Below, piece after piece: positions 4,667 to 53,535 of a stretch of 64,000 nucleotides of DNA. Position numbers and translations under genes: made by a program. Source of the DNA: a bacterium (GTDB lineage Bacteria; Patescibacteriota; Patescibacteriia; UBA9934; GWF2-40-263); the NCBI GenBank assembly GCA_021789915.1, contig JAJYIV010000002.1, positions 613 to 64,612 on the forward strand, read 5' to 3'. Under the pieces are notes generated by a model. That model was not told the DNA's origin. It was given only the letters and a program-made list of their open reading frames with translations, and did not search any database. Numbering within the stretch: position 1 is the first letter of the stretch; every line of letters starts with the position of its first letter.

Positions 4667-5584
4667 TCACACCCGCAGGTACCGCCGCATGGCAAGCGAC
4701 GTCGCGATCAGGTTCAGGATGGCGAGCGCGGCGAATTGCCCGCCGAAGATGAGCAGCCAGTTCTGCTGGAAATACGCGACGAGCCCCGTCTGGTAGCCGG
4801 CGCCGAGGAACACGTCGAGCTTCGGCTCCATCACGGCCACGGTCGGCAGCACGATGGCGACGACCACGAGCGTCGCGAGCAGGCTGTAGAACACGGCCTC
4901 GGCCAGGAACGGCCCCTTGACGAAGCGATCGGTGGCGCCTACCAGCTTCATGATGCCGATTTCCTCGCGGTGGATGAAAATGCCCATGCGCACCGTGTTG
5001 AACACGATGAGGACGGCGATCGCGAGGAACAACGCGGCGATGCCGATGCCCAGCGCGCGCGCCCGGTCCGTCAGGAAGCGGATGCGGTCGATGAGCTGGG
5101 AATAATTGCCGAAGTCCTTCTCGCGGATCTGGTCCTGGAATTGCGGATCCTGCAGCGCCTGGAGGATCACCGGAAAATCGTCCGCCGCGCGCGCCTTGAC
5201 GATGAGCGACGGCCCGAACGGATTGCCGCCCACTTCCGCGAGCGATTTCATGATGGCGTCCTCGCCGGCGTGCCGCGCCTTGAACTGGGCCAGGGCCTGA
5301 TCCGCCGTGACCGTCTCCACGTCCCGCACCTGCGGCAGGTTGCGCAGCTGCCCGGCGGCGGCCGTCAACTGGTCCGTCGTCACCTCCGGCTTGAAGTATA
5401 CGGACACTTCGACGCGGTCCTCGACCGCCTGGATGGCTTTCTGCGCCACGTGGTTCAGGACGACGAGGATGTTCACTGACAGAAGCGTCAGGGCAAGCAT
5501 GCTGACGGTGACGACGGACAGCCAGAAATTGCGCCAAAAGTTCTGGAACGCGAATTTCAGCACGCGCAGGAGGGGCGCCGTCAT
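4667..5584 (-). CDS. ftsX: Cell division ABC transporter permease FtsX
   Basis: 305 aa; 4-TM FtsX-like architecture; overlaps ftsE by 4 nt. Confidence 0.8.
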   Translation of the reverse strand: MTAPLLRVLKFAFQNFWRNFWLSVVTVSMLALTLLSVNILVVLNHVAQKAIQAVEDRVEVSVYFKPEVTTDQLTAAAGQLRNLPQVRDVETVTADQALAQFKARHAGEDAIMKSLAEVGGNPFGPSLIVKARAADDFPVILQALQDPQFQDQIREKDFGNYSQLIDRIRFLTDRARALGIGIAALFLAIAVLIVFNTVRMGIFIHREEIGIMKLVGATDRFVKGPFLAEAVFYSLLATLVVVAIVLPTVAVMEPKLDVFLGAGYQTGLVAYFQQNWLLIFGGQFAALAILNLIATSLAMRRYLRV

Positions 5585-6261
5585 AGTCGGTATTTTCCCT
5601 CTTCGACGTCCGAGACGATCCGGCCGCCGTCGAGGGCGATCACGCGCTTTTTGAGGCCGTTCACGACTTCGCGATTATGCGTCACCAGCACGACCGTGGT
5701 GCCGAACTCGTTGATCTTGCGCAGCAGCTCCATGATTTCGCGCGTGTTGATGGTGTCCAGGTTGCCGGTGGGCTCGTCGGCCAGCAGGATTTTGGGGCGG
5801 TGGACGAGCGCGCGGGCGATCGCGATGCGCTGCTGTTCGCCGCCGGACAGCTGCCTGGGGAAACGGTCGGCCTTGTCCTGAAGGTTCACGATGCGCAGGA
5901 CCTGCGGGACGATGTCGCGCACGCGCTCCAGCGGCAATCCGGAGACTTCCAGCGCGAACGCGATGTTCTCCGCCACCGTTTTGCGCTGGAGGAGCTTGAA
6001 ATCCTGGAACACGACGCCGATCTGCCGGCGCAGGAGCGGAACGTCGCGCTCGCGGATGCGGGTGATGTCCCAGCCGCCGACCACCACCTGACCTTCCGTC
6101 GGATGCTCCTCCGCGAACATGAGCTTGGCGAGCGTCGTCTTGCCCGTGCCGCTTTGGCCCACGATGGAAACGAATTCCCCGGCCTTGATATGCAACGAGA
6201 CGTCGCGCACGGCCGCGACGTTCGGATGGTAGATTTTGGTGACGTTCTTGAAGCGGATCAT
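5581..6261 (-). CDS. ftsE: Cell division ATP-binding protein FtsE
   Basis: Walker A GQSGTGKTT, ABC signature LSGGEQQR, Walker B ILLADEP; start taken at MIRFKNV. Confidence 0.85.
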   Translation of the reverse strand: MIRFKNVTKIYHPNVAAVRDVSLHIKAGEFVSIVGQSGTGKTTLAKLMFAEEHPTEGQVVVGGWDITRIRERDVPLLRRQIGVVFQDFKLLQRKTVAENIAFALEVSGLPLERVRDIVPQVLRIVNLQDKADRFPRQLSGGEQQRIAIARALVHRPKILLADEPTGNLDTINTREIMELLRKINEFGTTVVLVTHNREVVNGLKKRVIALDGGRIVSDVEEGKYRL

Positions 6262-6311
6262 GCCGTCTTGCGATTGGTCGGAACGTCGGCTATTATAGCG
6301 CACGCCATCGC

Positions 6312-6385
6312 GCAGGTATAGTTTAGTGGCAAAACGACTGCTTCCCAAGCAGTAGTCGCGGGTCCGATTCCCGCTACCTGCTCCA
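6312..6385 (+). tRNA. tRNA-Gly (anticodon CCC), CCA encoded
   Basis: Acceptor GCAGGTA/TACCTGC, D-arm GTTT-AGTGGCA-AAAC, anticodon arm ACTGC-TTCCCAA-GCAGT, T-arm GCGGG-TCCGATT-CCCGC. Confidence 0.8.
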
Positions 6386-6510
6386 AAAATCCCCGACTTG
6401 GTCGGGGATTTTTGCTTGTAAACGGGATGGGGGGCGCAAAAAACGCCGCCTGTTCCAAGAGGGGAACGGGCGGCAGCGTCAGTCGGCGGAGGGCGGCGGC
6501 CGCAGAAACG

Positions 6511-7686
6511 CTATGGTTCGCCGCGCGGGCGCAACAGCCACAGGACGGCGGCGACAGCCGCGAGCAGCGCGCCGCAAACCGTCCATGTCAATCGGATCGT
6601 GTCCGGCCCGTCGAGAAAGCGGCGGTCGGCAAGCCACAAGACAAGCGGCACGACGGTGAAACCGGCTTTCGCGGCGAATGAATGAAGCGATCCGGCGGTG
6701 GCGCGGTAGGCGCTTTCCACGCGACGGTGGATGAAGCGGTCCGTAAGCGGTTGGAAGGATCCGCGCGGCAGCTCGTGCAGCGCGAGCAGCGCCAGGAAGC
6801 CGACGCGGCCGCCGGAGAGCGGCAAGGCCAGCATTGCCAGCCCTGCGACGCCCATCGATACCGCCGTCGCGGCCGCGTCGTGCATGCCGGCGTCGGCCAA
6901 CCGCGGCATCAACAGGCCGCCGATGGAAGAGGCGAGGCACATTCCCGCAAAGACCAGGCCCAGGCGCGCGCGGCCGAACAGCCGTTCGGCATACGGCGCC
7001 CAAAAATAATTGATCCCGGCCACGAGGCCAAACGCGAACAGGCAGGCGGCGATCCATCGCAGCGCGCGCTGCGCGCGCAGGGCGCCGATCGCGCGTGCGA
7101 ACGCCTCCGTGCATGGCAGGCGATGCGCCGGATCGCCACGTCCGCGCATGCGCGTGCGCACGAACGCGACGAGTACGGGCGCGCACAAGAGTTCGGGAAC
7201 CCAGATCGCCCGTAGATGCCATGCGCCCAGCCAGCCGCCAAACGCGCCACCGGCCATCATGGCCAGGCCGCGCGCCGCGGACGCGCGGCCAAGAACGCCG
7301 CCGATATTTTCTCCATGGCCTTCGGCATGCAGCGTATCTACGAGCCATGCCTGCAGCGCGCCCGACTCGAACGCGAGACCGGCGCCTAGGACGATCTCCG
7401 CCGTCAGCGCCGAACCGAGCCCGCGCGCCAGCAGGTACGCGAGCGCGCCGGCGAACCGGATGACAGCACCCACGGCTAGCGTTCGCGCGCGCCCGAAACG
7501 ATCCGCCGCGAGACTCGTCGGAACGTCCATGGCAATCACGGCCGCACTGAAGAAACCGTTGATGAGCGCCACCTGGCCCAAGGTCAGGCCGATGGATCGC
7601 AGGAACGGCACGTAGTCCGCCATGGACATGGCAATGCCGAACGTGCTCAAGAATGCGAACGTCACGTACGTGCGCGCAGCGCGCAT
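6511..7686 (-). CDS. MFS transporter
   Basis: 391 aa, about 12 predicted TM helices, typical MFS loop composition. Confidence 0.7.
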   Translation of the reverse strand: MRAARTYVTFAFLSTFGIAMSMADYVPFLRSIGLTLGQVALINGFFSAAVIAMDVPTSLAADRFGRARTLAVGAVIRFAGALAYLLARGLGSALTAEIVLGAGLAFESGALQAWLVDTLHAEGHGENIGGVLGRASAARGLAMMAGGAFGGWLGAWHLRAIWVPELLCAPVLVAFVRTRMRGRGDPAHRLPCTEAFARAIGALRAQRALRWIAACLFAFGLVAGINYFWAPYAERLFGRARLGLVFAGMCLASSIGGLLMPRLADAGMHDAAATAVSMGVAGLAMLALPLSGGRVGFLALLALHELPRGSFQPLTDRFIHRRVESAYRATAGSLHSFAAKAGFTVVPLVLWLADRRFLDGPDTIRLTWTVCGALLAAVAAVLWLLRPRGEP

Positions 7687-7883
7687 GGTTCCTCCTTGGA
7701 AGGATCAAAAACGGCCGGGGGGTTTCCCGGCCGTTCGGGTCCTGATGCGCGTCACGCGCCCATCAGACCCCTGCCGCCGGGAAACGAAAAACACATAGAC
7801 GGGCGTCAAGAAGAATGGTCAGATCTCTCAAACGGCCCTTGTCCGACCGGACGTTTCTTGATATGGTGCCCGCGCTCAAGACG

Positions 7884-7905
7884 GGTCAGTATATACATAC
7901 TGACC
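7884..7905. promoter_or_regulatory. Perfect 9-bp inverted repeat GGTCAGTAT-ATAC-ATACTGACC in the divergent region between the MFS gene and tRNA-Lys (operator-like)
   Basis: seen directly; AT-rich centre resembles a -10 element. Confidence 0.35.
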
Positions 7906-7926
7906 TCTCGTCGTTCGGGCACGACT

Positions 7927-7945
7927 AATGCGTTTAGAACGCATT
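7927..7945. promoter_or_regulatory. Inverted repeat AATGCGT-TTAGA-ACGCATT just upstream of tRNA-Lys
   Basis: seen directly. Confidence 0.3.
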
Positions 7946-7965
7946 GGTCGCACCGCTCACTCCTT

Positions 7966-8040
7966 GGGTCAGTAGCTCAGTGGTAGAGCCAGGGCCTTTT
8001 AAGCCCGCGGTCGTGGGTTCGATCCCCACCTGACCCACCA
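7966..8040 (+). tRNA. tRNA-Lys (anticodon TTT), CCA encoded
   Basis: Acceptor GGGTCAG/CTGACCC, D-arm GCTC-AGTGGTA-GAGC, anticodon loop CTTTTAA, T-arm GTGGG-TTCGATC-CCCAC. Confidence 0.85.
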
Positions 8041-8041
8041 G

Positions 8042-8165
8042 AAAACCGCCTAAAGCAGCGATCTATCGGCTCAGGCCTCGCGTGCTCGCTCACCGTACAT
8101 ATCAGTACGGCTCGCTGCGCCCGCTTCGGCCTTCACCGATATCTCATCTGCTTTAGGCGGTTTTT
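8042..8165 (+). ncRNA. Structured element immediately 3' of tRNA-Lys, closed by a 17-bp perfect inverted repeat (AAAACCGCCTAAAGCAG ... CTGCTTTAGGCGGTTTT) and ending in a T-run
   Basis: Long-range perfect stem enclosing internal hairpins (CCGTAC-ATATCA-GTACGG; UUCG-containing stem); could be a compound terminator or a small RNA. Confidence 0.4.
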
Positions 8166-8408
8166 AAGATGGGATCGAACCGGAAGCCGGAGAATGGTCG
8201 AGTCTTGCAACGGTCTCAGTGCAGAAGCTTGACGGAATCCTCATTCCTGGTATCTTTCGTCCTTGCTCTTTTTATGTTTTCAACGTTTGATTGAGCCATG
8301 AGGCAAGCGTTTTTCCGATCTTTTCGAAGGCCGGCAAGCCGCTTGTCTCATGGAAATGAGTCAGCCGCACCGGGAGTCCCCCGACTGCGAAACAAAAGGA
8401 GAATGACG

Positions 8409-9296
8409 ATGCCGGCCACGCCGATCACGTCACCTCAGAAGCGCAAGATCGCAGCCCTCGTCTCCGAAGCGACCGAGAAGGTCATCGAGGAGATGGGACT
8501 CGACAAGGAAGGCGCACAGTGGGTCATAGAGATGAACGGCGACGAATTCGCCGCCGCCGTGCGCGAGAAGGTTCGCGAGCTGCTCACCCGTCTCTCCGTC
8601 TCCGACCAGTTCGCCGACGAGGAAGTCGCCTCGAACTACGGCTATCTCTCCGGCTACAAGCAGCCGAAAGGGATCACCGAGCAGACCAACCGCCTGCGTG
8701 AGCTGATCCGAGGCGTCGGGTTCGCGGACGAGAAGTTGGCGGAGCTCCCTCTGCCGAAGCTCGCGGAAGGCTTCTTCGCCATCCCGAAGTGGGAGACGGT
8801 CGCCCCGACCTACGGCGAGGCCGTCCAGAAGGTGCAGGATCTCCTGAGGGCCCAGCGCGGCGGCAAGTTCTACAGCTACCGCGAAGGCCAGCTCGGACCC
8901 CTGCACCTCCGGCAGAGCGCCCGCTCCGTCGCGTTCTGGAAGCGGCTCGCCGACGCGCAGAAGGGCTACGACATCCTCGTCGTTCCCGCTCAGTTCGGCA
9001 AGCGCGACGGGATCTCTCGTTCCGTCCGCCGCTCTCGTGTGGTCTTCACGGCGCAGGAGTTCGGTCTCGGGGCGTTCGCTTCCGGGATCATGCTCCTCAC
9101 CCACCCGGAGCGTCTGCAGCACTACGACGATCTCTGGATCGACTGTGCCGGAGACGAGTACGCTCCGGGGGCTGACGACCAATTCGTCAACGCGCCGTAC
9201 TTCTACTTCGACGTTGACGGGCTCGAGTTCGACGCGTTCGGTGTCGGCAGCTACTACGACTTCTGCGGGTCTGCGTCGGCCTTCTCCCCGGAGTAG
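8409..9296 (+). CDS. Hypothetical protein (about 296 aa)
   Basis: GC3-rich ORF with SD AAAGGAG 7 nt upstream of the ATG at 8409; GC slightly lower than neighbours; no family recognised. Confidence 0.55.
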   Translation: MPATPITSPQKRKIAALVSEATEKVIEEMGLDKEGAQWVIEMNGDEFAAAVREKVRELLTRLSVSDQFADEEVASNYGYLSGYKQPKGITEQTNRLRELIRGVGFADEKLAELPLPKLAEGFFAIPKWETVAPTYGEAVQKVQDLLRAQRGGKFYSYREGQLGPLHLRQSARSVAFWKRLADAQKGYDILVVPAQFGKRDGISRSVRRSRVVFTAQEFGLGAFASGIMLLTHPERLQHYDDLWIDCAGDEYAPGADDQFVNAPYFYFDVDGLEFDAFGVGSYYDFCGSASAFSPE

Positions 9297-9439
9297 AGTC
9301 CTCGTCCCTCAGTTCCTTTGTTACTCTTTCCGTTCTTTCCGTCTTGTCCCTTTTCGGGACACTACCGGCGTTCGTTTCAACAAACGCCGGTATTTCTTTT
9401 TCTTCGGCGGGGATCGGAGAGTGTTGTAAATCTCCTTTT

Positions 9440-9568
9440 CTCGTCATTGCGAGGAGCTGGTCCCAGTCGTGGCGACGAAGCAATCCTGCAGTTTCCTTCG
9501 AGAACGGAAGGATTGCTTCGCTCCGGCCTCCGGCTTTCGCTCGCAATGACGAGTTTTGCAACGGTCTC
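9440..9568. repeat. Nested palindromic element (14-bp outer stem CTCGTCATTGCGAG/CTCGCAATGACGAG) ending in TTTTGCAACGGTCTC
   Basis: Nested inverted repeats (GAAGCAATCCT/AGGATTGCTTC; TTCCTTC/GGAAGGA); its 3' motif matches the 3' ends of elements at 13610..13713 and 24242..24411 and the motif at 8207. Confidence 0.45.
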
Positions 9569-9659
9569 TGATCGAACGCTTGACGCGGCGCTTGACGCTC
9601 CCTTCCCTCCCGTTCAACGTCCTTTATAATGAAGGGATACTCAATCATCCTTTCATCCT

Positions 9660-9797
9660 ATGAACGATTTCGGGACGTGCGAAAACTGCGGTGCGGAAGA
9701 TCAGGAGCTTGACGAGAACGGCCTGTGTCCGGACTGCAGCGCGCAGGGACACACGGAGCGCGGCCCCGACATGGGCGACGAAGAAGAGAGCGCCTAG
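9660..9797 (+). CDS. Small zinc-ribbon protein (45 aa, two CxxC pairs)
   Basis: MNDFGTCENCGAEDQELDENGLCPDCSAQGHTERGPDMGDEEESA; GC3-rich codons; TATAAT at 9625; its stop overlaps the murG stop convergently; below the length cut-off of the ORF track. Confidence 0.4.
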   Translation: MNDFGTCENCGAEDQELDENGLCPDCSAQGHTERGPDMGDEEESA

Positions 9798-10885
9798 CGT
9801 CCGGCCAGGGCGCGCACGCGTTCCGCCAGGCGTTCCGCGGCGCCTCCCGGGAACAGCGCCCCGATCCGTTCGGACAGGCGGCGCTGTTTTTCTTTGTCTC
9901 CGACAAGCGCCGCGACCTGCGCGACGAGCGCGGTCCCGCCGCGCGCCTGCTCCACGGCCACCGCCGCCCCGCGGCGCAGGACGGCGCGCGCGTTTTCCTC
10001 CTGCGGCGAGCGCGGCAGCGGCACGAGCACGCACGGCTTGCGCAGCGCCGAGAGCTCCGCAAGCGTGCCCATGCCGGCGCGCGCGACCACGACGTCGGCA
10101 GCCGCCAAGGCGTCGGCCAAATCGCGGCCAAGGAGCAGCTCCACGGCGGCGTAGCCGGGCCCGGCCGCGCGCAGGCCCTCGGTGACTTTCCCGCGGCCCG
10201 TCACGTGGATGACGTCGGCGACGGCGCGCATGCGCTCCATCCCCGCCTCAAACGCCCGGTTGATCCACGCCGATCCGCCCCCGCCGCCCAGCACGAGCGC
10301 CACCGGACGCGCGCCGGAAAAGCCGTAGCGCGCGCGGGCGGCCGACGCATCGCCGCGCAGGATCGACGGCCGCACGGGCTGGCCGACGACGAGCGTTTTG
10401 TCCTTCGGGAACGCCGCGGCCGTCTCGGGCCACGCGACGGTGATGAGCGACGCGGCGCCCGCACACAGGCGGTTGGACAAGACCGGCCGCACGTCGGGCT
10501 GATGGATCCACGACGGAATCTTGAACCGGCGAGCCAGCAGGACGAACGGCACGCCGGTGAAGCCGCCGGCCGAGGCGACGACGTCCGGCCGTTCGCGGCG
10601 GAGCAGGCGCCACGCGGCGAACAGCGCCGCGGCGGCTTTGAACGGGAACACCAGCCACTCGGCGGACGCGTAGCGCGTCAGGCGCGCCACGGGCACGGCG
10701 TGGAACGGAATGCCCGCCTGCTCCACCAGCGCGCGCTCCGGCCCGCGCGCCGTTCCCGCCCACGCGAACGACGCGTCCGGATCGGACGCGCCATGCCTGT
10801 CGGCAGGCAGGCGCAACGCTTCGGCGACGGCGAGCAGCGGCGTGACGGGACCAAGCGTTCCTCCGCCGGCAAAGAGGATTTTCAT
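9794..10885 (-). CDS. murG: UDP-N-acetylglucosamine--N-acetylmuramyl-(pentapeptide) pyrophosphoryl-undecaprenol N-acetylglucosamine transferase
   Basis: MKILFAGGGTLGPV start, glycine-rich MurG N-terminus and GT28 C-terminal domain. Confidence 0.8.
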   Translation of the reverse strand: MKILFAGGGTLGPVTPLLAVAEALRLPADRHGASDPDASFAWAGTARGPERALVEQAGIPFHAVPVARLTRYASAEWLVFPFKAAAALFAAWRLLRRERPDVVASAGGFTGVPFVLLARRFKIPSWIHQPDVRPVLSNRLCAGAASLITVAWPETAAAFPKDKTLVVGQPVRPSILRGDASAARARYGFSGARPVALVLGGGGGSAWINRAFEAGMERMRAVADVIHVTGRGKVTEGLRAAGPGYAAVELLLGRDLADALAAADVVVARAGMGTLAELSALRKPCVLVPLPRSPQEENARAVLRRGAAVAVEQARGGTALVAQVAALVGDKEKQRRLSERIGALFPGGAAERLAERVRALAGR

Positions 10886-10897
10886 AGCGGTAAGCCA

Positions 10898-10916
10898 ACA
10901 GCCGTCAGCCGTCAGG
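10898..10916. repeat. Heptamer array GCCGTCA x2, left arm of the inverted repeat bracketing the four-helix-bundle gene
   Basis: AGCCGTCAGCCGTCAGG is the reverse complement of CTGACGGCTGACGGC at 11338..11352. Confidence 0.6.
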
Positions 10917-11280
10917 GATTGGCCTTCGGCCTCGAAGAACACAAGACGTTCAACATACGCAAAACTTCATGCAAGAGACAGTCGGCTCGATCGTAATCGA
11001 GTGAACCGGTTCTCGGAAGCCGCCGAGCGATCGAGAGTTGCGTCTGAAGCTCGGCCGCCGAACCGTAAGCGATCGAGAGGAACCTGGCAAACTCATTGTC
11101 GTAGCCGCGCATCTTCCCTTCCGCGATATTCGATGGAATGGAAACCGCTGCTCGTCTCATTTGGCTTGTTAAACCGAATCGTTCGTCCGTCGGGAAAGAG
11201 TCGGTCAAGAGGTAAATCTCAAGGGAAAGATCCATGGCTTTTTGCCAGACAATGAGATCTTCGTATGGTCCTGTCGACAT
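10912..11280 (-). CDS. Four-helix-bundle protein (TIGR02436 / 23S rRNA intervening-sequence protein family)
   Basis: 122 aa, MSTGPYEDLIVWQKAMDLSLEIY... with the AVSIPSNIAEG signature; local GC is lower than surrounding sequence; inserted between murG and ftsW. Confidence 0.75.
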   Translation of the reverse strand: MSTGPYEDLIVWQKAMDLSLEIYLLTDSFPTDERFGLTSQMRRAAVSIPSNIAEGKMRGYDNEFARFLSIAYGSAAELQTQLSIARRLPRTGSLDYDRADCLLHEVLRMLNVLCSSRPKANP

Positions 11281-11322
11281 ATTGGTTCGCATGGTTGGCG
11301 TCAAATACGCGAGACGCTCGTG

Positions 11323-11352
11323 CCTGATGGCTGATGGCTGACGGCTGACGGC
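11323..11352. repeat. Heptamer array (CTGATGG x2, CTGACGG x2), right arm of the inverted repeat bracketing the four-helix-bundle gene
   Basis: seen directly. Confidence 0.6.
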
Positions 11353-13609: not shown

Positions 13610-13713
13610 GAGACCCCTGAAAAACCGATGGGTGTTCGTTGTCCGCCGGAGGCGGATCCGGCTCTGCCGGAAATGGACTGCGGAACCCGCGAGACGAACA
13701 GGCGCGATTTTGC
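13610..13713. ncRNA. Structured element A with 10-bp terminal inverted repeats GAGACCCCTG...CAGAGGTCTC (MITE-like or intercistronic RNA; sits in the mraY leader if transcribed on the minus strand)
   Basis: Shares architecture and conserved single-stranded segments with element B at 24242..24411; internal hairpins CGCC-GGAG-GCGG, CCGGC-UCU-GCCGG and GCGG-AAC-CCGC. Confidence 0.5.
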
Positions 13714-13720
13714 AGAGGTC

Positions 13721-14116
13721 TCACAGGTTAAGCAGCACCATGAAGGTGGACGCGATGAGCAAGACGGTTTCGACGAACACGGTCAGGCCGAGAAAAAACA
13801 AGGCGATGAGGCGCTCGCGGCGGAAGGCCCAGGCGCCCACGGCGACATTCACCGCAAGGACGGCCAAGCCGAAGGCGGCCGGCGTGAAGAGCCGCCACCA
13901 CGGCCCGAACTGGTCCACGCCGAAATAAACCGTGCCGTGCAGCGGCACGTACATGCCCGGCGTCGCGCGCGGAAAGACTTTCCAAAACGGCAGGAAGGCC
14001 GTGAGCGCGACAAGCAGGAGAGAGACGGCGGTCAACCACCGGTAGGCGCGCGAACGGGCGAACAGATCGCGGAGAGAGGCGGCAGCGGCCCCCGACGCGT
14101 GACGGAGCGCGCGCAT
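13721..14116 (-). CDS. Hypothetical membrane protein
   Basis: 131 aa, 3-4 hydrophobic helices. Confidence 0.5.
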   Translation of the reverse strand: MRALRHASGAAAASLRDLFARSRAYRWLTAVSLLLVALTAFLPFWKVFPRATPGMYVPLHGTVYFGVDQFGPWWRLFTPAAFGLAVLAVNVAVGAWAFRRERLIALFFLGLTVFVETVLLIASTFMVLLNL

Positions 14117-14885: not shown

Positions 14886-16211
14886 TTAGAGCCTGTTCAT
14901 CCGGCAGACGAAGCTCTTCAAATACGCCGCCTCGGGGAAATACACGGACAACGGATGATCCGGGCTCTGACGCACGACCTCGAGCACCTGCAGGTCGACG
15001 CCCGCCTGCACCGACGCGCGGCGCAGCAGGAAGACCAAGTCCTCCTCCGGCAGGAAATGCGAACAGCTGGACGTGATGAAGATGCCGCCGTCCTTCACGA
15101 GCTTGAGCGCGGCGCGGTTCAGGAAATGATAGGCCTTCTTCCCTTCCTCGGCGTCCTTCATCGACTTGATGAGCGCCGGCGGATCCATAACGACGACGTC
15201 GAAAGCGCCGGCAACCCCCTCAGACTCCCCCTTGGCAAGGGGGAGATGGTGCGGGTTGGCGAGCCACTGGAAGACGTCCGCTTTCTCCGTCGCGCAGACC
15301 TCGTCGGACAAGCCGGCCGCCGCCGCCTGCGCGCGCAGCGATGCCAGCGCTTCCTCGGATCCGTCGACGTTCAGGACGGATTTCGCCCCGCCGGCGAAAG
15401 CGGCGAAGGACGTGGCACCGGTGTATGAAAAGAGATTCAGAACCGTCTTCCCTTGCGCGAGCGCGGCGACCCGGTCGCGCAGGTCCTTCTGGTCGAGGAA
15501 GAATCCCGTCTTTTGTCCGTGAAGAGGATCGGCGACGCAACGCCGGCCGTGCTCGAGAAATTCGACTTGACCCAATGCGCGTCCTCCCCTTTCCAAGGGG
15601 AGGCTGCCTGCTGGCCGCTTTTCAGCAGGCGGAGGTGTTGCCGGCGTGTGAATTCTGACGACCGCCTCCAGGTTCTCCTCGCGCCGGCTCGGCATGTCGC
15701 TGCGCTCGACGATCGCGCGCGGCTTGAACGTCTCTTCCAGCGCGGCGACGACGTCGTCACGCAGCGCGTCGAGACCGGCGGTTGCGATCTGGCATACGAG
15801 CACGTCGCCGTAGCGGTCGACGACCAAGCCCGGAATCCCGTCGGACTCGCCGAACACGCAGCGGTAGCCGGTCGTGAACTTCTCCCCCTTTTCAAGGGGG
15901 AGACTCTGCTCCAGAGGGGGTCGAGGGCCGTATCCCATCAAAACCCGTTTCTGGTGCGCATCCGCGATCTTGGCCGCCAGCCAGGCGCGGTCGATGACGG
16001 CCTCTTTGAACGCAAACACGCGCACGGCGATGGACGAGCTGGCGGAGTACGTCCCCGTGCCGATGATGCGCCCCTGGCGGTCCGCGACGTGCACGAGGGC
16101 GCCATGCTCGGGTTTCTTCTGACCGTCGGCCAGCGCGCGCGAAAAAATCCACGGATGGCGGAAGCCGACATTGGCCTCCTTCCCTTCTTTGAGCTTCAGG
16201 ACGGGGTACAT
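14886..16211 (-). CDS. rlmI: 23S rRNA (cytosine-C5)-methyltransferase RlmI (PUA + class I SAM MTase) carrying in-frame repeat insertions
   Basis: MYPVLKLKEGKE... PUA N-terminus and an Ado-Met MTase domain; 442 aa versus about 395 typical; extra segments coincide with repeat copies at 15225, 15583 and 15882. Confidence 0.75.
   Translation of the reverse strand: MYPVLKLKEGKEANVGFRHPWIFSRALADGQKKPEHGALVHVADRQGRIIGTGTYSASSSIAVRVFAFKEAVIDRAWLAAKIADAHQKRVLMGYGPRPPLEQSLPLEKGEKFTTGYRCVFGESDGIPGLVVDRYGDVLVCQIATAGLDALRDDVVAALEETFKPRAIVERSDMPSRREENLEAVVRIHTPATPPPAEKRPAGSLPLERGGRALGQVEFLEHGRRCVADPLHGQKTGFFLDQKDLRDRVAALAQGKTVLNLFSYTGATSFAAFAGGAKSVLNVDGSEEALASLRAQAAAAGLSDEVCATEKADVFQWLANPHHLPLAKGESEGVAGAFDVVVMDPPALIKSMKDAEEGKKAYHFLNRAALKLVKDGGIFITSSCSHFLPEEDLVFLLRRASVQAGVDLQVLEVVRQSPDHPLSVYFPEAAYLKSFVCRMNRL
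15225..15245. repeat. Partial family-P hairpin (CTCCCCCTTGGCAAGGGGGAG) inside rlmI
   Basis: seen directly. Confidence 0.55.
15583..15648. repeat. GC-rich palindromic repeat (family P, forward orientation) in-frame inside rlmI
   Basis: CCTCCCCTTTCCAAGGGGAGG-CTGCCTGCTGGCC-GCTTTTCAGCAGGCGGAGGTGTTGCC; near-identical to 63803..63868. Confidence 0.75.
15882..15922. repeat. Partial family-P hairpin (CTCCCCCTTTTCAAGGGGGAG) inside rlmI
   Basis: seen directly. Confidence 0.55.
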
Positions 16212-19051: not shown

Positions 19052-19477
19052 TTACGACGCCAGCCCGAGCTTTGCCTCGACGACCTGCAAACGCCCCTCG
19101 AAGCGATCCATCCGCAAGGTCGGCGCGACCAGCTCCTGCTCGATCGTCAGCTGCAGCCGCGCCACCTGGTCGCTCACGGCAAGGACTTCCTGACGAACGT
19201 CTTGAAGATCCTCCTTTGTCGCGAAACGGTCGAAATCGTCTTTCGTGGCAAAGTTCTGCAGATCGTCTTTCGTGGCAAAGTTCTGCAGATCGTCTTTCGT
19301 GGCAAAGTTCTGCAGATCGTCTTTCGTGGCAAAACGGTCGAAATCGGCCTTCATTGCCACATTCTCCTTTACGAAACCGATGAATTCGTGCATTTCCGAC
19401 GTTAAACCTTCGACCTTCCGTTCAAGGCCATCGAACTTCTGCGCCAGCTGATTTGTCGTCAGGTGTTCCTCACTCAT
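19052..19477 (-). CDS. Coiled-coil protein with four tandem 9-aa repeats (FATKDDLQN), low-GC gene
   Basis: 141 aa; encoded by 27-nt tandem DNA repeats; GC clearly below flanking sequence. Confidence 0.6.
   Translation of the reverse strand: MSEEHLTTNQLAQKFDGLERKVEGLTSEMHEFIGFVKENVAMKADFDRFATKDDLQNFATKDDLQNFATKDDLQNFATKDDFDRFATKEDLQDVRQEVLAVSDQVARLQLTIEQELVAPTLRMDRFEGRLQVVEAKLGLAS
19215..19345. repeat. 27-nt tandem repeat (GATCGTCTTTCGTGGCAAAGTTCTGCA, about 4.5 copies) inside a CDS
   Basis: Near-perfect direct copies seen directly. Confidence 0.8.
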
Positions 19478-22485: not shown

Positions 22486-22652
22486 ACATCTGCGTGTTCG
22501 CCGGTCTTCCCGCCTTCTGTACATCCGAGAAGGACGGCATGGTCGTCACCCTCCCCTACCCGTTAGCGAACGGTCGGGAGAATTCTGTCAGCTTCCGACT
22601 CCGCGGGAAGACAACGGTCCTCGCCGCGCCGCACATCGTCTACGTCCACTGA
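22486..22652 (+). pseudogene. 3' fragment (about 55 codons) of a paralog of the small membrane protein gene at 24740..25207; no plausible start codon
   Basis: ICVFAGLPAFCTSEKDGMVVTL...APHIVYVH aligns with ACVFGGLPAICETSKRGTDVAVFL...APHIIYVP; the downstream 81 bp is nearly identical. Confidence 0.55.
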
Positions 22653-22706
22653 CGCACGCGCGTCCGCGCGGTTCGTGAGCCCGACGCTCACGGCCGCCGC
22701 GGGCGC
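22625..22706. repeat. Left copy of an 81-bp direct repeat (4 mismatches to 25181..25261)
   Basis: GCGCCGCACATCGTCTACGTCCACTGACGCACGCGCGTCCGCGCGGTTCGTGAGCCCGACGCTCACGGCCGCCGCGGGCGC; contains palindromes GTGAGCCCGACGCTCAC and CGCGCGTCCGCGCG. Confidence 0.8.
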
Positions 22707-24241: not shown

Positions 24242-24411
24242 AAAGAAAGATTGAGACCTCTGAAAAACTGATGGATTTTCGTTGTCAGCCAAAGGCTGAT
24301 CAGCCTCTGGCTGAAATGGGCTGCCGAGCCCCGCGAACCCTACTGAAACGTAGGGAGAGCGGGGTCGGCGGGCGCCCATGAAACGAAAAGACGCCGTTTT
24401 GCAGAGGTCTC
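24242..24411. ncRNA. Structured element B with 10-bp terminal inverted repeats GAGACCTCTG...CAGAGGTCTC (homologous to element A)
   Basis: Compensatory changes relative to A: CAGCC-UCU-GGCUG versus CCGGC-UCU-GCCGG, and UUUUCGUU/AACGAAAA versus UGUUCGU/ACGAACA; conserved CUGAAAAAC-YGAUGG, AAUGG and UUUUGCAGAGGUCUC segments. Confidence 0.55.
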
Positions 24412-24739: not shown

Positions 24740-25207
24740 ATGTTTATGCGTCCCACGCTCGGCGTTCGGGACGAACAAGCCACCTTCCGGCCCTGCGGGG
24801 GCCTCACACAGAAGGAGAAAGCCGTGATCCACAGAATCGTGATTGGAACAGTCGTCGCCGTCGGTGTTCTCTACCTCGCAAAGCCCATCGTCGGGTACTT
24901 CCACGAACAGGACGTGAAGGTACGCGCCGAGACCGACGTCGTGTGCGCGCACGTGACCCCGGCCAACTGGGGCGGCGAGGACAGCGCAACCTGCCGTAAG
25001 CTCGTGGCCAAGTTCATCAACATCGACCTCAAGCCGAAGGCCTGCGTCTTCGGCGGACTCCCGGCCATTTGCGAGACGTCGAAGAGGGGCACCGATGTCG
25101 CCGTGTTCCTCAAACGAAAAGACGGGCCGCTCCAGTACAGCCTGCTGCCCATCATGACCAAGGAACAGCTGGCGAACTCGGCGCCGCACATCATCTACGT
25201 CCCCTGA
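24740..25207 (+). CDS. Small membrane-anchored protein (155 aa)
   Basis: SD GGGAAGGGG upstream of ATG; single TM segment IVIGTVVAVGVLYLA; its 3' end and downstream 81 bp are duplicated at 22486..22706. Confidence 0.55.
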   Translation: MFMRPTLGVRDEQATFRPCGGLTQKEKAVIHRIVIGTVVAVGVLYLAKPIVGYFHEQDVKVRAETDVVCAHVTPANWGGEDSATCRKLVAKFINIDLKPKACVFGGLPAICETSKRGTDVAVFLKRKDGPLQYSLLPIMTKEQLANSAPHIIYVP

Positions 25208-25261
25208 CGCACGCGCGTCCGCGCGGTTCGTGAGCCCAACGCTCACGGCCGCCGCGGGCGC
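25181..25261. repeat. Right copy of the 81-bp direct repeat
   Basis: see 22625..22706. Confidence 0.8.
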
Positions 25262-40470: not shown

Positions 40471-41595
40471 TCAGGAGACGAGGGGACGCGCGATCGCGGC
40501 GGCGAGCGCTTCCATCCCCTGCCCCGTCGCCGCGGACACCGGCGCCACGGCCGCGAAGGCCCCCGCGTCGAACGCCGGGCCAAGGCGTCGCCGCCAATCG
40601 GCGCCGGCGGCGTCGATCTTGTTCACCGCGAGCACGCGCGGCGTTTCCGCGGCGCCCAAGCGCTTCAGGATCTCGTCCACCACGCGCAGATGGTCCGCCG
40701 CATGCGCGTCGGCGGCATCCACGACCTGCACGAGCACGTCGGCGTCCGCCGCCTCCGAGAGCGTCGATGCGAACGCGTTCAAGAGCTCGGGCGGCAGATT
40801 TTGGATGAAGCCGATCGTGTCGGAGACGAGCACCTGGCGCGGCGGCTCGTTCTCTTTCCTTGCGACGTACAGCGAGCCAACGCGCGTGTCGAGCGTGGCG
40901 AAGAGCTCGTCGGCCGCATACTCGCGCCGGCGCGTGAGCCGGTTCAGCAGCGACGTCTTGCCGGCGTTCGTGTAGCCGACGAGCGCCGCCGTGGGCAGGC
41001 CCTGCCGCCGACGCCGTTCCTGGCGCGCGCGACGCATCGTCTGATACCGCGCGAGCTTCTCCCCGACCGCTTCGGCGCGCTCGCGCAGGTGCCGGCGCAT
41101 GATCTCCGTGTTCGTCTCGCCCTTGCCGCGCGTACCGGTGCCGCCGCCCTGGCGCGACAATTCCAGGCCCATGCCGTAGATGCGCGGGCCCATGTGCCGG
41201 ATGCCGGCCAACTCGATCTCCAGCCGCGCCTCCGTCGTGCGCGCGTGCTTGGCGAAGATCTTCAAGATGAGATCGAGGCGGTCCCACACCTGGAGGCCGG
41301 CCGGGCGCAGCGCTTCCGAGAGAAGATAGACTTGCCGCGGCTTGAGCCGGTCGTTGATGACCACGAGCGCCGCCCCGAGCCGCTTCCCTTCCTCGGCCAG
41401 CTGCTCGATCTTTCCCGTACCGAGGAATGTCGCCGGATGCGGCGCCGCGCGGCGCTGATGCGTCTTCACGACGACGATGCCGCCGTACGTGCGCACGAGT
41501 TCTTCCAATTCCTGCAGCCGATCCAAACTCTCCGCCTTCGTGAGCCGCGGCGGGATCAGATCGACGAGAATGGTTTTGAGGAGACGGTCGGCCAT
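40471..41595 (-). CDS. hflX: GTPase HflX
   Basis: N-terminal HflX domain plus G-domain (GYTNAGKTSLLN, DTIGF, NKID). Confidence 0.85.
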   Translation of the reverse strand: MADRLLKTILVDLIPPRLTKAESLDRLQELEELVRTYGGIVVVKTHQRRAAPHPATFLGTGKIEQLAEEGKRLGAALVVINDRLKPRQVYLLSEALRPAGLQVWDRLDLILKIFAKHARTTEARLEIELAGIRHMGPRIYGMGLELSRQGGGTGTRGKGETNTEIMRRHLRERAEAVGEKLARYQTMRRARQERRRRQGLPTAALVGYTNAGKTSLLNRLTRRREYAADELFATLDTRVGSLYVARKENEPPRQVLVSDTIGFIQNLPPELLNAFASTLSEAADADVLVQVVDAADAHAADHLRVVDEILKRLGAAETPRVLAVNKIDAAGADWRRRLGPAFDAGAFAAVAPVSAATGQGMEALAAAIARPLVS

Positions 41596-51349: not shown

Positions 51350-53398
51350 TCACCGCACGCGCGTCCGGAACAGCTCGTCCGGCCACTTGGCGAAATACTT
51401 GAGGAAGCTGATCGAGTGCGCGCGGGCCATCCGGTTGACGAGCAGCGTGCGCAGCAGGCTGCCCTGGCGCACCGATCCCTTGCCGTAGGCATGCTGCAGC
51501 GCCGCATCGGCCACATAGTACACCGGCCGGTGCATCGCCCACGAGCGGCGGCACAGATCCACGTCCTCGAAGTACATCCAGAAGCGCTCGTCGAAGCCGC
51601 CCAGCGCGCGCCAGTGCTCCATCGGCAGGAACAGCGCGGAGCCCTGCGCCCAATCCACCATGCGCGTTTCGCCTGGCGGCGTGTCGCGCATCAGGAAACG
51701 ATGGAGGTAGCGGCGGCCGAAGGCCGTGCCGCCGAGCGTCGTGCGCTGGACGAGCGGCAGCGGCCACGACGGGAAGCGGCGCACGGTTTCCTGCGCCTGT
51801 CCGTCGGGATAGACGATCTTGGGCGCGGCGATGCCGGCGCGCGGATGCGCGCGCATGAACGCGACGAGCTTGGCGAAGAGCCGATCGTCGACGAGTTCCG
51901 TATCCGGGTTCAGCACGAAGAGGAACTCGGCGTCGAGCTCGGCGGCGCCGCGGTTCACGGAGCTGCCGTAGCCGGCGTCCCAGTTGCGCTGGACGACCAC
52001 GCCGTCGGGAATCGCGTCCCACAGCACGGCCGCGGCATCGTACGCCGTCGACGCGTTGTCCACGACGACGACGCCGACGCGCAGGCCGGACGCCTTGCGC
52101 GCGCGATCGAGCGAACGCAGACACGCGGCGCTCAAATCGTCGTGCGAGACGATGACGACGGCGATGTCGAGGTAAGTAGCTGGCGGCTGGGGGCTGGCGG
52201 CTGGGGGAGAAAACGGGAGCGGGGCCTGCGCGCGCGCCGCGTCCGCGGGCGACGGCACGGCGCGAACCGCGCCGAACCGCGCGGCGTACGCGCGCCGCTT
52301 CGTGATCAGCTCATGCCGATGCTCCCACGTTTCCCGCCACGCCTCGGTGCACACGCGCGGCCGCATGACGAGCCAATATGCCGCCTTCGCCGCCTCATAC
52401 GGAAGCACGGCCCATGCGCGCGCCGGCGCCGAACGGAACTCCCCCTGGCTCCCTCTTGAAAAGAGGGGGAAGTGCATCGCCAGCGTCCAAAGATGGTTGC
52501 GGTACGAGTGGAACACCGGCCGCCAGGTTTGCGCGGTGCGGCCGATTCCCCCCCTGCCTGCCTCGCATACCCCCCGCCTGCCAAAATGCGGCCAGCAGGC
52601 AGCCCCCCTTGGCAGGGGGGCAATCCTGGCCGTGCCGAAGCTGCGGCGATGGTACGCGACGGCGTCGGACACGACGCCGGAGGCGAAGCCCGCGCGGCGC
52701 AATCTCCACGCAAGCTCGACGTCTTCCTTGTACGAGACGAACGACGGGTCAAACAAATTCCCGTCCAACGACGCCGCCTCTACCGCCGCACGGCGATACA
52801 TCGGCAGGCAGCCCGACACCCCGAACGCCTCGTGCACGCCCTCATGCAGCTGCGCCGTCGAAACACGCTCCCCTGCTCCGATGTCGCGCACGGCGCCCGT
52901 TGCCGACATCGCCAAGCCGAAACTGTCGATCACGTCCGTGCGCCCGCCGGACCCCTCTGCCCAGCTGAGCTGGGCCGTCCCCCCTTGGCAGGGGGGGACG
53001 ACACACGCCGCCCGATCGAAATCCCATCGATACACGCGCCCGGCGACGGACCCGAGCCGCGCGTCCGCGTCCAGCGCGGCGACGAGCCGCTCGAGATACG
53101 CCGGTTCCAGGATCGCATCGTCGTTGTGCAGCATCACGTACGCCGCCTGATGCTTGGAGAACAGCAGGTTATGCGCGCCGGCAAAGTCGACGTTGCGCGG
53201 CCCGACGTCCACGTACACGGCGCGGTCGCCGAGTTCCCGCGCGAACGCGCGCACCGCCTCGGCCTGCACGGGATCCGACGCATTGTCCGTCACGTACAGC
53301 GTCCAATCGCGGAACGTCTGCGCGCGCAGGGACGCCAAAATATGCGGCAGGTACCGCGCGCCGTCGTAGCAGGAAAGTTGGATGGCGAGTTTGGACAT
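51350..53398 (-). CDS. Tandem double-domain glycosyltransferase family 2, with in-frame family-P repeat insertions
   Basis: Two GT2 modules (LYVTDNASD...; VVVVDNASTAYD...); repeat-derived peptides VPPCQGGT and PLPRGAACWP. Confidence 0.7.
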   Translation of the reverse strand: MSKLAIQLSCYDGARYLPHILASLRAQTFRDWTLYVTDNASDPVQAEAVRAFARELGDRAVYVDVGPRNVDFAGAHNLLFSKHQAAYVMLHNDDAILEPAYLERLVAALDADARLGSVAGRVYRWDFDRAACVVPPCQGGTAQLSWAEGSGGRTDVIDSFGLAMSATGAVRDIGAGERVSTAQLHEGVHEAFGVSGCLPMYRRAAVEAASLDGNLFDPSFVSYKEDVELAWRLRRAGFASGVVSDAVAYHRRSFGTARIAPLPRGAACWPHFGRRGVCEAGRGGIGRTAQTWRPVFHSYRNHLWTLAMHFPLFSRGSQGEFRSAPARAWAVLPYEAAKAAYWLVMRPRVCTEAWRETWEHRHELITKRRAYAARFGAVRAVPSPADAARAQAPLPFSPPAASPQPPATYLDIAVVIVSHDDLSAACLRSLDRARKASGLRVGVVVVDNASTAYDAAAVLWDAIPDGVVVQRNWDAGYGSSVNRGAAELDAEFLFVLNPDTELVDDRLFAKLVAFMRAHPRAGIAAPKIVYPDGQAQETVRRFPSWPLPLVQRTTLGGTAFGRRYLHRFLMRDTPPGETRMVDWAQGSALFLPMEHWRALGGFDERFWMYFEDVDLCRRSWAMHRPVYYVADAALQHAYGKGSVRQGSLLRTLLVNRMARAHSISFLKYFAKWPDELFRTRVR
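52544..52625. repeat. GC-rich palindromic repeat (family P, reverse orientation) in-frame inside the tandem GT2 gene
   Basis: rc reads GCCCCCCTGCCAAGGGGGGGCTGCCTGCTGGCCGCATTTTGGCAGGCGGGGGGTATGCGAGG. Confidence 0.75.
52977..53000. repeat. Partial family-P hairpin (CCCCCCTTGGCAGGGGGGG) inside the tandem GT2 gene
   Basis: seen directly. Confidence 0.55.
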
Positions 53399-53404
53399 AG
53401 ATCG

Positions 53405-53535
53405 CTGGCAACCCCTCCGCCTGCCGATGGTCGGCCAGCAGGCAGCCTCCCCTTGGGGGGGCGCGTTTTTCCGCGTCCCCTCTTTTCCAAGAGCCTGTCC
53501 TGAGCGAGCGGAGCGAGTCGAAGGAAGGGGTCAAG
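53405..53535. repeat. Composite repeat (family P core plus the GCCTGTCCTGAGCGA..GTCGAAGGA.GGG module) filling the intergenic space
   Basis: seen directly. Confidence 0.65.

Follow-up and report, generated by a model that had tools for sequence, protein, structure and literature searches.

Within a 64,000-nt stretch of contig JAJYIV010000002.1 (positions 613-64,612; hereafter the window, whose own positions serve as coordinates throughout), the block between a tRNA-Lys gene and murG holds a gene for a 295-aa protein that belongs to the target family of a diversity-generating retroelement (DGR), and whose variable region (VR) was, to judge from where its substitutions fall, itself written by adenine mutagenesis. 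We read the block as a whole, with a probability of about 0.75, as a composite of independent features lying between two conserved neighbours, tRNA-Lys with its terminator on one side and a small zinc-ribbon gene convergent with murG on the other. For the gene itself we lean towards a binding protein of fixed specificity that has lost its retroelement. The two features that carry the main finding are as follows.

8409-9296, + strand: DGR variable-protein (target) gene, 295 aa, with an N-terminal helical region and a C-terminal C-type-lectin-like domain
9164-9294, + strand: VR equivalent, covering the final ~131 nt of the gene and placed by comparison with template repeats

In a complete DGR, a reverse transcriptase (RT) and its partner Avd make cDNA from a template repeat (TR), misincorporating opposite adenines, and the cDNA replaces the 3′ VR of the target, re-randomising the ligand-binding face of its C-type-lectin fold. 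Mismatches between VR and TR that are confined to adenines are the defining signature of such an element. The family was surveyed in 80 loci from representative genomes; labels such as L001, L005 or L212 denote the homolog, relative or palindrome-bearing loci compared with the window. At L005 the gene is followed, in order, by a spacer of ~430 nt, a 131-nt repeat of the gene 3′ end, a bAvd gene and an RVT_1 gene, and 131-nt VR/TR pairs are carried by L005, L006 and L007. Every VR/TR mismatch lies at a TR adenine in L005 (19/19), L007 (17/17), L022 (24/24) and L030 (29/29), and in most of the loci with a forward TR nearly all mismatches fall at adenines. The window gene is 51-65% identical to genes with 129-131-nt VR/TR pairs. 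In about 46 of the 80 loci the gene is accompanied by a TR, Avd and/or RT, either downstream or inverted upstream, and the family includes multi-target cassettes (L080, L081). The window gene is a member of this DGR target family.

The VR of the window was compared with 30 TRs from other genomes, separating columns with a conserved adenine from conserved columns without one. It differs from the TRs at 16 of the 27 conserved-A columns versus 5 of the 52 conserved non-A columns (Fisher p = 5e-6). Since the differences concentrate at the conserved-A columns of the family TRs, this VR was itself written by adenine mutagenesis. The TRs of many classes of the Candidate Phyla Radiation (CPR) are nearly identical in DNA, with 79 columns at least 90% conserved across 30 genomes, and this near-identity persists despite widely differing host GC content (for example L014:7279-7409 and L035:7274-7403), which points to strong constraint or to a recent spread of this DGR lineage. 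A non-coding VR-TR spacer of ~250 nt is also conserved among cassette-linked loci (L005:5990-6330, L006:5980-6296, L007:5950-6273), and might form the 5′ portion of the DGR RNA.

The first-pass annotation, made from the letters alone, had taken the gene for a hypothetical orphan of slightly lower GC. Neither description holds, as the protein has 1,657 homologs (~60% identity, full length) in Parcubacteria, Zambryskibacteria, Howlettbacteria and other Patescibacteria (CPR), and the GC content of the gene, at 0.649, equals the window mean (0.656) and that of the neighbouring genes, being lower only than that of murG (0.745). GC at third codon positions (GC3) is 0.868, compared to 0.81-0.89 in neighbouring genes. 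Profile methods do place the protein in a large family, with ~1,986 clusters (50% identity) matching the family profile among 1.84 billion representatives, and this search returned close family members only, with no link to a named family. There was likewise no match for the protein in Pfam, PHROGs, NCBIfam or PADLOC; a profile search against PDB sequences was empty, so that similarity to solved variable proteins is undetectable by this route, and Foldseek against the PDB with the full-length model gave noise only. The C-terminal domain, which includes the VR, models as a C-type-lectin fold.

In placing a C-terminal VR within a C-type-lectin-like fold, the protein resembles known DGR variable proteins (Bordetella phage Mtd, Treponema TvpA and Thermus TaqVP), from which the window copy differs in that the 64 kb around it contain neither a TR nor Avd or RT. 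Clade 2 of the DGRs occurs in CPR only, with targets in which no domain is recognisable (PMC8144416). The window family is like these clade 2 targets (PMC8144416, PMC5758913), with adenine-specific TRs beside Avd and RT in the homologs; furthermore, like the CPR targets in those reports, the window protein lacks any recognisable Pfam domain and shows neither a transmembrane segment nor a signal peptide.

The gene lies between its own upstream and downstream signals, which are listed here.

8229-8256, + strand: promoter-like site, TTGACG, a 16-nt spacer, TG and TATCTT; the sole sigma-70-like site in 7700-9900
8298-8351, + strand: conserved hairpin of the 5′ untranslated region (5′UTR), ATGAGGCAAGC...GCTTGTCTCAT, from alignment to homolog loci
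9343-9404, + strand: post-stop hairpin (9343-9358) and then an intrinsic terminator (9363-9392) with a T-run, identified as inverted repeats

Translation starts at ATG 8409, which is preceded by an AAGGAG ribosome-binding site. The ATG at 8298 was considered as a start codon and rejected, as it lies inside the 5′UTR hairpin and homologs begin at the equivalent of 8409. In homolog loci a TTGACA-N17-TAnAAT promoter stands at a comparable distance from this hairpin, whose consensus ATGAGRCRAGC...GCTYGTCTCAT is present in 28 of the 77 family loci in which it was scored, 52-90 nt before the start codon, with compensatory changes in its arms. This hairpin, ~50 nt long and of the form ATGAGACGAGC...GCTCGTCTCAT in the family, is found in cassette-linked and stand-alone genes alike (loci L010-L084). 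Downstream, a CT-rich tract follows the stop codon directly, ahead of the small hairpin and the terminator, and the closest homolog (L003) has two post-stop hairpins in identical layout with a different sequence. With promoter, 5′UTR hairpin, coding sequence and terminator in place, the gene unit is self-contained, and the gene would be expressed from its own promoter as a binding protein.

A retroelement is missing from the neighbourhood of the gene. The window contains no RT, family-type Avd, TR or second variable-protein gene, which leaves more than 54 kb on one side of the gene and 8 kb on the other free of any cassette. In tblastn searches of the window with the RT and Avd of L005 the best match had E = 0.9; there is no second copy of 9050-9330 in the 64 kb, where the family TR consensus matches the VR alone, and the ~250-nt VR-TR spacer of cassette-linked loci is absent. 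The segment 9297-9660 was examined as a decayed TR or DGR RNA and rejected, given that it does not align to the conserved VR-to-TR spacer. Other members of the family are in a similar position, with at least 20 loci showing no TR, Avd or RT despite at least 3 kb on both flanks, and a few others retaining partial cassettes: L009 has a TR alone, L012 and L032 have a TR and a truncated Avd but lack an RT, and L067 and L088 have nothing but fragments of an RT. Taken together, these intermediate loci read as a decay series.

Relatives with such a decay series, CPR DGRs that tend to serve one target, and a VR identical in two assemblies tip the balance slightly towards a gene that is now a fixed-specificity binding protein, its retroelement lost. 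The second assembly, L001, differs from the window by single-nucleotide polymorphisms (SNPs) and a structural junction, and its VR is the same although the assemblies differ elsewhere. A less probable alternative, which still deserves serious weight, is that the gene is a remote target diversified in trans by a TR/Avd/RT cassette elsewhere in the genome. DGRs are able to act in trans on non-adjacent targets, and targets at distances above 100 kb have been described, though solely in other DGR lineages (PMC5758913); in this family, the multi-target cassettes noted above point the same way, as do the intact open reading frame (ORF), the adenine-mutagenesis imprint of the VR, and a VR 3′ end with a downstream CT-rich tract like those of cassette-linked homologs. 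The window gene resembles the remote targets of Treponema denticola and Legionella in standing apart from any cassette, but in those genomes a matching TR was identified elsewhere, whereas none was identified for the window gene, and remote targets are unreported for the CPR DGR lineage (PMC5758913). A distant cassette is further disfavoured by the empty flanks of the gene, by the typical restriction of CPR DGRs to a single target, with remote targets reported for other lineages (PMC5758913), by the partial cassettes showing that cassette loss happens, and by the shared VR of two assemblies that are otherwise distinct. Several points nonetheless tell against loss of the retroelement. A remote DGR with a matching TR may lie outside the 64-kb window, and the intact ORF, the GC-rich VR 3′ end and the CT-rich post-stop tract would also fit a gene that is still targetable, such that the ORF and the VR flanks do not discriminate a relic from a remote target. 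In addition, the two assemblies are perhaps from the same or related samples, and VR identity is for this reason weak evidence for inactivity.

We now turn to the block in which the gene lies, whose remaining features are listed in order.

7966-8040, + strand: tRNA-Lys(UUU) (ARAGORN; Rfam, 68.7 bits)
8042-8164, strand unassigned: imperfect palindrome of 123 nt with 17-bp perfect outer arms (8042-8058 / 8148-8164) and a T-run
8171-8181, - strand: 11-nt inverted fragment identical to the T-arm of the window tRNA-Lys (GGTTCGATCCC), found as an inverted repeat
8199-8234, + strand: first copy of a direct repeat, CGAGTyTTGCAACGGTCTC-N10-GCTTGACG
9406-9418, - strand: 13-nt inverted fragment identical to the T-arm variant of the relatives' tRNA-Lys (TCCGATCCCCGCC), abutting element C
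9418-9568, + strand: element C, a 151-nt structured repeat identified by its fold, with imperfect terminal inverted repeats GAGAGTGTTGTAAA / TTTGCAACGGTCTC
9592-9630, + strand: zinc-ribbon gene promoter region, TTGACG...CTTCCCTCCCGTTCAA...TATAAT, conserved in relatives
9660-9797, + strand: 45-aa double-CxxC zinc-ribbon gene, with orthologs in 5 relatives
9794-10885, - strand: murG, the block boundary (Pfam Glyco_transf_28 N- and C-terminal domains)

At the first boundary, a 17-bp perfect inverted repeat directly 3′ of tRNA-Lys had been put forward as part of an inserted element. The repeat is present, beginning 2 nt past the tRNA, but it occupies the position of the tRNA-Lys terminator. In L090 and L212 a simple AAAAC...GTTTT terminator follows the CCACCAG of tRNA-Lys exactly where the window has its 17-bp arms, and given this identical position the 123-nt hairpin is an enlarged and bidirectional tRNA-Lys terminator. 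Against shuffled sequences it folds at -65 kcal/mol (z = -8.5) on the + strand and -81.5 kcal/mol (z = -11.9) on the - strand, with terminator-like sites at both arms on both strands; its 89-nt interior is atypical for an intrinsic terminator. There are no other copies of the palindrome in the window or in any fetched locus, and Rfam gave no gathering-score match to this hairpin or to the nested palindrome of element C, only chance-level matches (E = 0.7 or worse). The tRNA-Lys itself is 86% identical to that of L212 and has the same orientation relative to the zinc-ribbon gene. At the top of its anticodon stem (7990-7991) L001 has CG where the window has AG, and the L001 stem is better paired.

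At the second boundary, the 45-aa double-CxxC ORF is as the first-pass annotation described it, with a TATAAT box at 9625-9630 and a stop codon sharing 2 nt with that of murG within CTAG, but it does not belong to an inserted element. Synteny was followed in L089, L090, L091 and L212 (60-72% MurG identity) and in L213 (57%), and in all five a 43-45-aa ORF is convergent with murG, overlaps or abuts its stop codon, and keeps both CxxC pairs. The acidic tail is kept as well, in the form RGPDMG-EEE in the proteins of the window, L089, L090 and L091, and the promoter region is 72-83% identical to its equivalents in L089 and L212. Over 29 codons, the orthologs show 7-8 synonymous and 10-11 non-synonymous differences. 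A protein search with the ORF returned its self-match alone, so that the homologs were found through synteny, and Pfam zinc-ribbon families match it below threshold only. The order PUA-methyltransferase, L27, NifU, hypothetical, mraY, ftsW, murG is common to the window, L089, L090, L091 and L212. As both the ORF and its promoter are conserved in relatives, this is a real, syntenic core small gene and not island cargo.

Beyond murG, between it and ftsW, lies a 23S_rRNA_IVP-type four-helix-bundle gene (10912-11334, - strand, GC 0.53), which is an insertion, given that ftsW and murG overlap or abut in L089, L090 and L212. This gene was also tried as a DGR Avd and rejected, as it matches 23S_rRNA_IVP at E = 2e-37 compared to 0.0018 for bAvd, shows no tblastn relation to the family Avd, and has no RT present with it. 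A GCTAA-repeat leader motif occurs 6 times in the window, in every case shortly before an ATG start on the - strand, and one of these copies (10883-10923) stands beside this gene.

The distance between these two boundaries varies greatly. The tRNA-Lys 3′ end and the zinc-ribbon promoter are separated by 48 nt in L212 but by 1,550 nt in the window, with equal orientation and the same order of tRNA-Lys, terminator, zinc-ribbon promoter and zinc-ribbon gene. The four other relatives (L089, L090, L091, L213) have their tRNA-Lys on the opposite strand, or else a contig that breaks off inside it. At L090 it is followed by BipA, a penicillin-binding protein and a Mur ligase, and since all three are absent from the window, synteny breaks inside the interval. 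None of the five relatives has the variable-protein gene at this site, and in other genomes the gene occurs in unrelated contexts (rpsF-ssb-rpsR, ftsEX, terC), no two of the genomes examined agreeing in this respect. The interval thus looks to have gained ~1.5 kb relative to L212 at a rearrangement-prone tRNA locus, probably by recombination at repeats and not through an integrase. It must be set against this that the direction of the change rests on one comparator, L212, in which a deletion is possible.

Two pieces of tRNA sequence lie inside the interval. The T-arm fragments are 2 of the 4 places in the 64 kb outside tRNA genes with an 11-mer or longer match to tRNA-Lys sequences, and 9406-9418 is the sole such place with a match of at least 12 nt. 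Two fragments in the interval compare to ~0.1 expected from the density in the window, although the test was post hoc. An 8-mer, GATCGAAC, at 8173 and 9571 flanks the gene together with element C. The interval contains no integrase, as first noted, nor a recombinase or other mobility gene, and its sole long ORF is the variable-protein gene; the tRNA 3′ end is not repeated in direct orientation, nor does any direct repeat touch 8000-8040.

Element C encloses the nested palindrome reported in the first-pass annotation, with its 14-bp perfect outer arms confirmed at 9440-9453 / 9540-9553 and inner arms at 9476-9493 / 9503-9520. The palindrome (9440-9553) folds with z = -5.7 and is followed directly by TTTTGCAACGGTCTC at 9554-9568, and the 14-nt terminal repeats of the element pair at 13 of 14 positions, including two G-U pairs on the + strand. 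As the annotation had also seen near 8207, the terminal motif recurs: the 13-mer TTGCAACGGTCTC is repeated exactly at 8205-8217, inside a 36-nt direct repeat (8199-8234 / 9550-9585, 81% identity). The upstream copy resembles a lone right end from a repeat of the element C type and supplies the -35 box of the variable-protein gene; both right-end copies are followed ~10 nt later by a TTGACG -35 box. The L001 assembly is identical to the window over 5409-9569 except for 3 nt and then diverges completely, and this junction marks either the right boundary of element C or a second copy elsewhere. An alternative junction at the right end, along with one SNP, suggests a second copy of the element. 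The divergence of L001 past 9569 is structural variation, either between strains or induced by a repeat. In L073, an unrelated low-GC CPR genome, a similar element that shares the GAGTTTTGCAACGGTCTC end stands upstream of thyA. Apart from the possible 8-mer GATCGAAC, element C has no evident target-site duplication.

The inner palindrome, of the form GTCATTGCGAGG...CGACGAAGCAATCC-loop-GGATTGCTTCG...CTCGCAATGAC, occurs in more than 120 metagenome contigs among the matches listed, and its copies have variable side hairpins and covarying stem extensions. The metagenome form, GTCATTGCGAGG...GAAGCAATCC...GGATTGCTTC...CTCGCAATGAC (L092-L171 and further loci), has a four-way-junction-like layout, and L109:3969-5019 contains 8 tandem copies with a 121-nt period. 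We considered TTGCAACGGTCTC as part of this widespread palindrome and rejected it, the flank being present in 0 of 159 metagenome copies. Rfam had no match for the nested palindrome, nor for those in 17 other palindrome-bearing loci, and a literature search with palindrome and motif strings returned unrelated primer sequences only.

The terminal motif had further been said to match the ends of two structured elements, A (13612-13722) and B (24255-24411). This is correct for the ends, which read TTTTGCAGAGGTCTC and match TTTTGCAACGGTCTC at 13 of 15 bases, and not for the bodies: A and B are 80% identical to each other and unrelated in body to the element at 9418-9568. Element A is missing from the orthologous hyp131-mraY gap in L089 and L212, and it follows that the class of element A does insert. 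Elements A and B share the terminal inverted repeats GAGACCyCTGAAAAA / TTTTGCAGAGGTCTC and neither matches Rfam; element B folds at -97 kcal/mol (z = -10) and lies just past a tRNA-Ala terminator.

Element C may be likened to miniature inverted-repeat and REP-like elements such as the Correia elements of Neisseria, REP/BIME, RUP and BOX. It would be alike in being ~150 nt long, non-coding, strongly folding and intergenic, and in having terminal inverted repeats and a sharp boundary, seen as the alternative junction; its right ends each stand ~10 nt before a -35 box, and the related elements A and B are insertions relative to other genomes. It differs in showing no clear target-site duplication and has no known transposase partner. 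Its inner palindrome keeps its sequence in many metagenomes that are unrelated to one another, which is not typical of miniature elements restricted to one lineage.

Three other accounts of how the gene came to lie here have to be weighed against a composite assembled from independent features. The closest to the first-pass suggestion of a decayed or miniature element is a tRNA-targeted integrative island, inserted at the tRNA-Lys 3′ end and later deprived of its integrase. Parts of that suggestion stand, as the interval varies in size (48 nt in L212, 1,550 nt in the window) and contains a retroelement-associated gene, repeat elements and tRNA T-arm fragments, while an integrase, an att repeat and a compositional anomaly are lacking. 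Genomic islands of this kind likewise place extra DNA directly 3′ of a tRNA, vary in size among relatives and include tRNA fragments, and the excess of such fragments over the ~0.1 expected, the flanking 8-mer and the flips of tRNA-Lys orientation among relatives would all suit an island. However, the interval has neither a mobility gene nor a direct repeat of the tRNA 3′ end, and its gene does not stand out from the host in GC or GC3. The T-arm fragments lie in inverted orientation, measure just 11-13 nt and were tested post hoc. The supposed zinc-ribbon cargo is core and syntenic, the 17-bp inverted repeat serves the tRNA as its terminator and does not mark the end of an element, and the insert of ~1.5 kb with a single gene is small; we regard an island as quite improbable.

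It is only marginally easier to accept that the arrangement is ancestral, the gene having always stood between tRNA-Lys and the zinc-ribbon gene and been lost from L212 and the other relatives. The fully native composition is consistent with this, and the relatives available are few (57-72% MurG identity), but the gene is missing at the site in all five, its homologs elsewhere sit in unrelated contexts, and it is bracketed by repeat-element ends and tRNA fragments. A speculative and comparably doubtful scenario has the gene captured and moved as a 1.35-kb composite between two element-C-type right ends, with a family of elements with terminal inverted repeats mobilising and driving stand-alone CPR DGR targets and tRNA-Lys as a recurrent recombination hot spot. 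Should a distant DGR also still be diversifying the gene in trans, no remote target would have been known before it from the DGR lineage of CPR.

Further repeats were observed elsewhere in the window. REP-like GC-rich palindromes (CCTCCCCTTnCCAAGGGGAGGCTGCCTGCTGGCC...) are found on both strands at 1505-1564, 15580-15646, 52562-52621 and 53405-53464, and further ones at 60803-60875, 62611-62653 and 63794-63866. A 27-nt tandem repeat of at least 5 copies spans 19196-19365, and an 81-nt repeat occurs twice, 2.5 kb apart and with 96% identity (22626-22706 and 25181-25261). ARAGORN called a 94-nt tRNA-Ala(GGC) at 40523-40616 on the - strand, which scores below the gathering score of the Rfam tRNA model; the call may represent an intron-containing tRNA or be false.

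DGR targets in CPR are a known class, and little here will be very surprising to a specialist. Along the way, a small conserved zinc-ribbon gene partnered with murG has been documented, as has a metagenome-wide nested palindrome that is in no RNA-family library. The main consequence is that a "hypothetical orphan" becomes a member of a very large, domain-unannotated class, the DGR-diversified binding proteins of CPR. Approximately one third of the informative loci, including the window, are stand-alone genes without a retroelement, and surveys that start from the reverse transcriptase miss all such stand-alone targets. Whether such genes are frozen relics or are still served from a distance matters for understanding how CPR cells, as episymbionts, adjust surface or ligand recognition.

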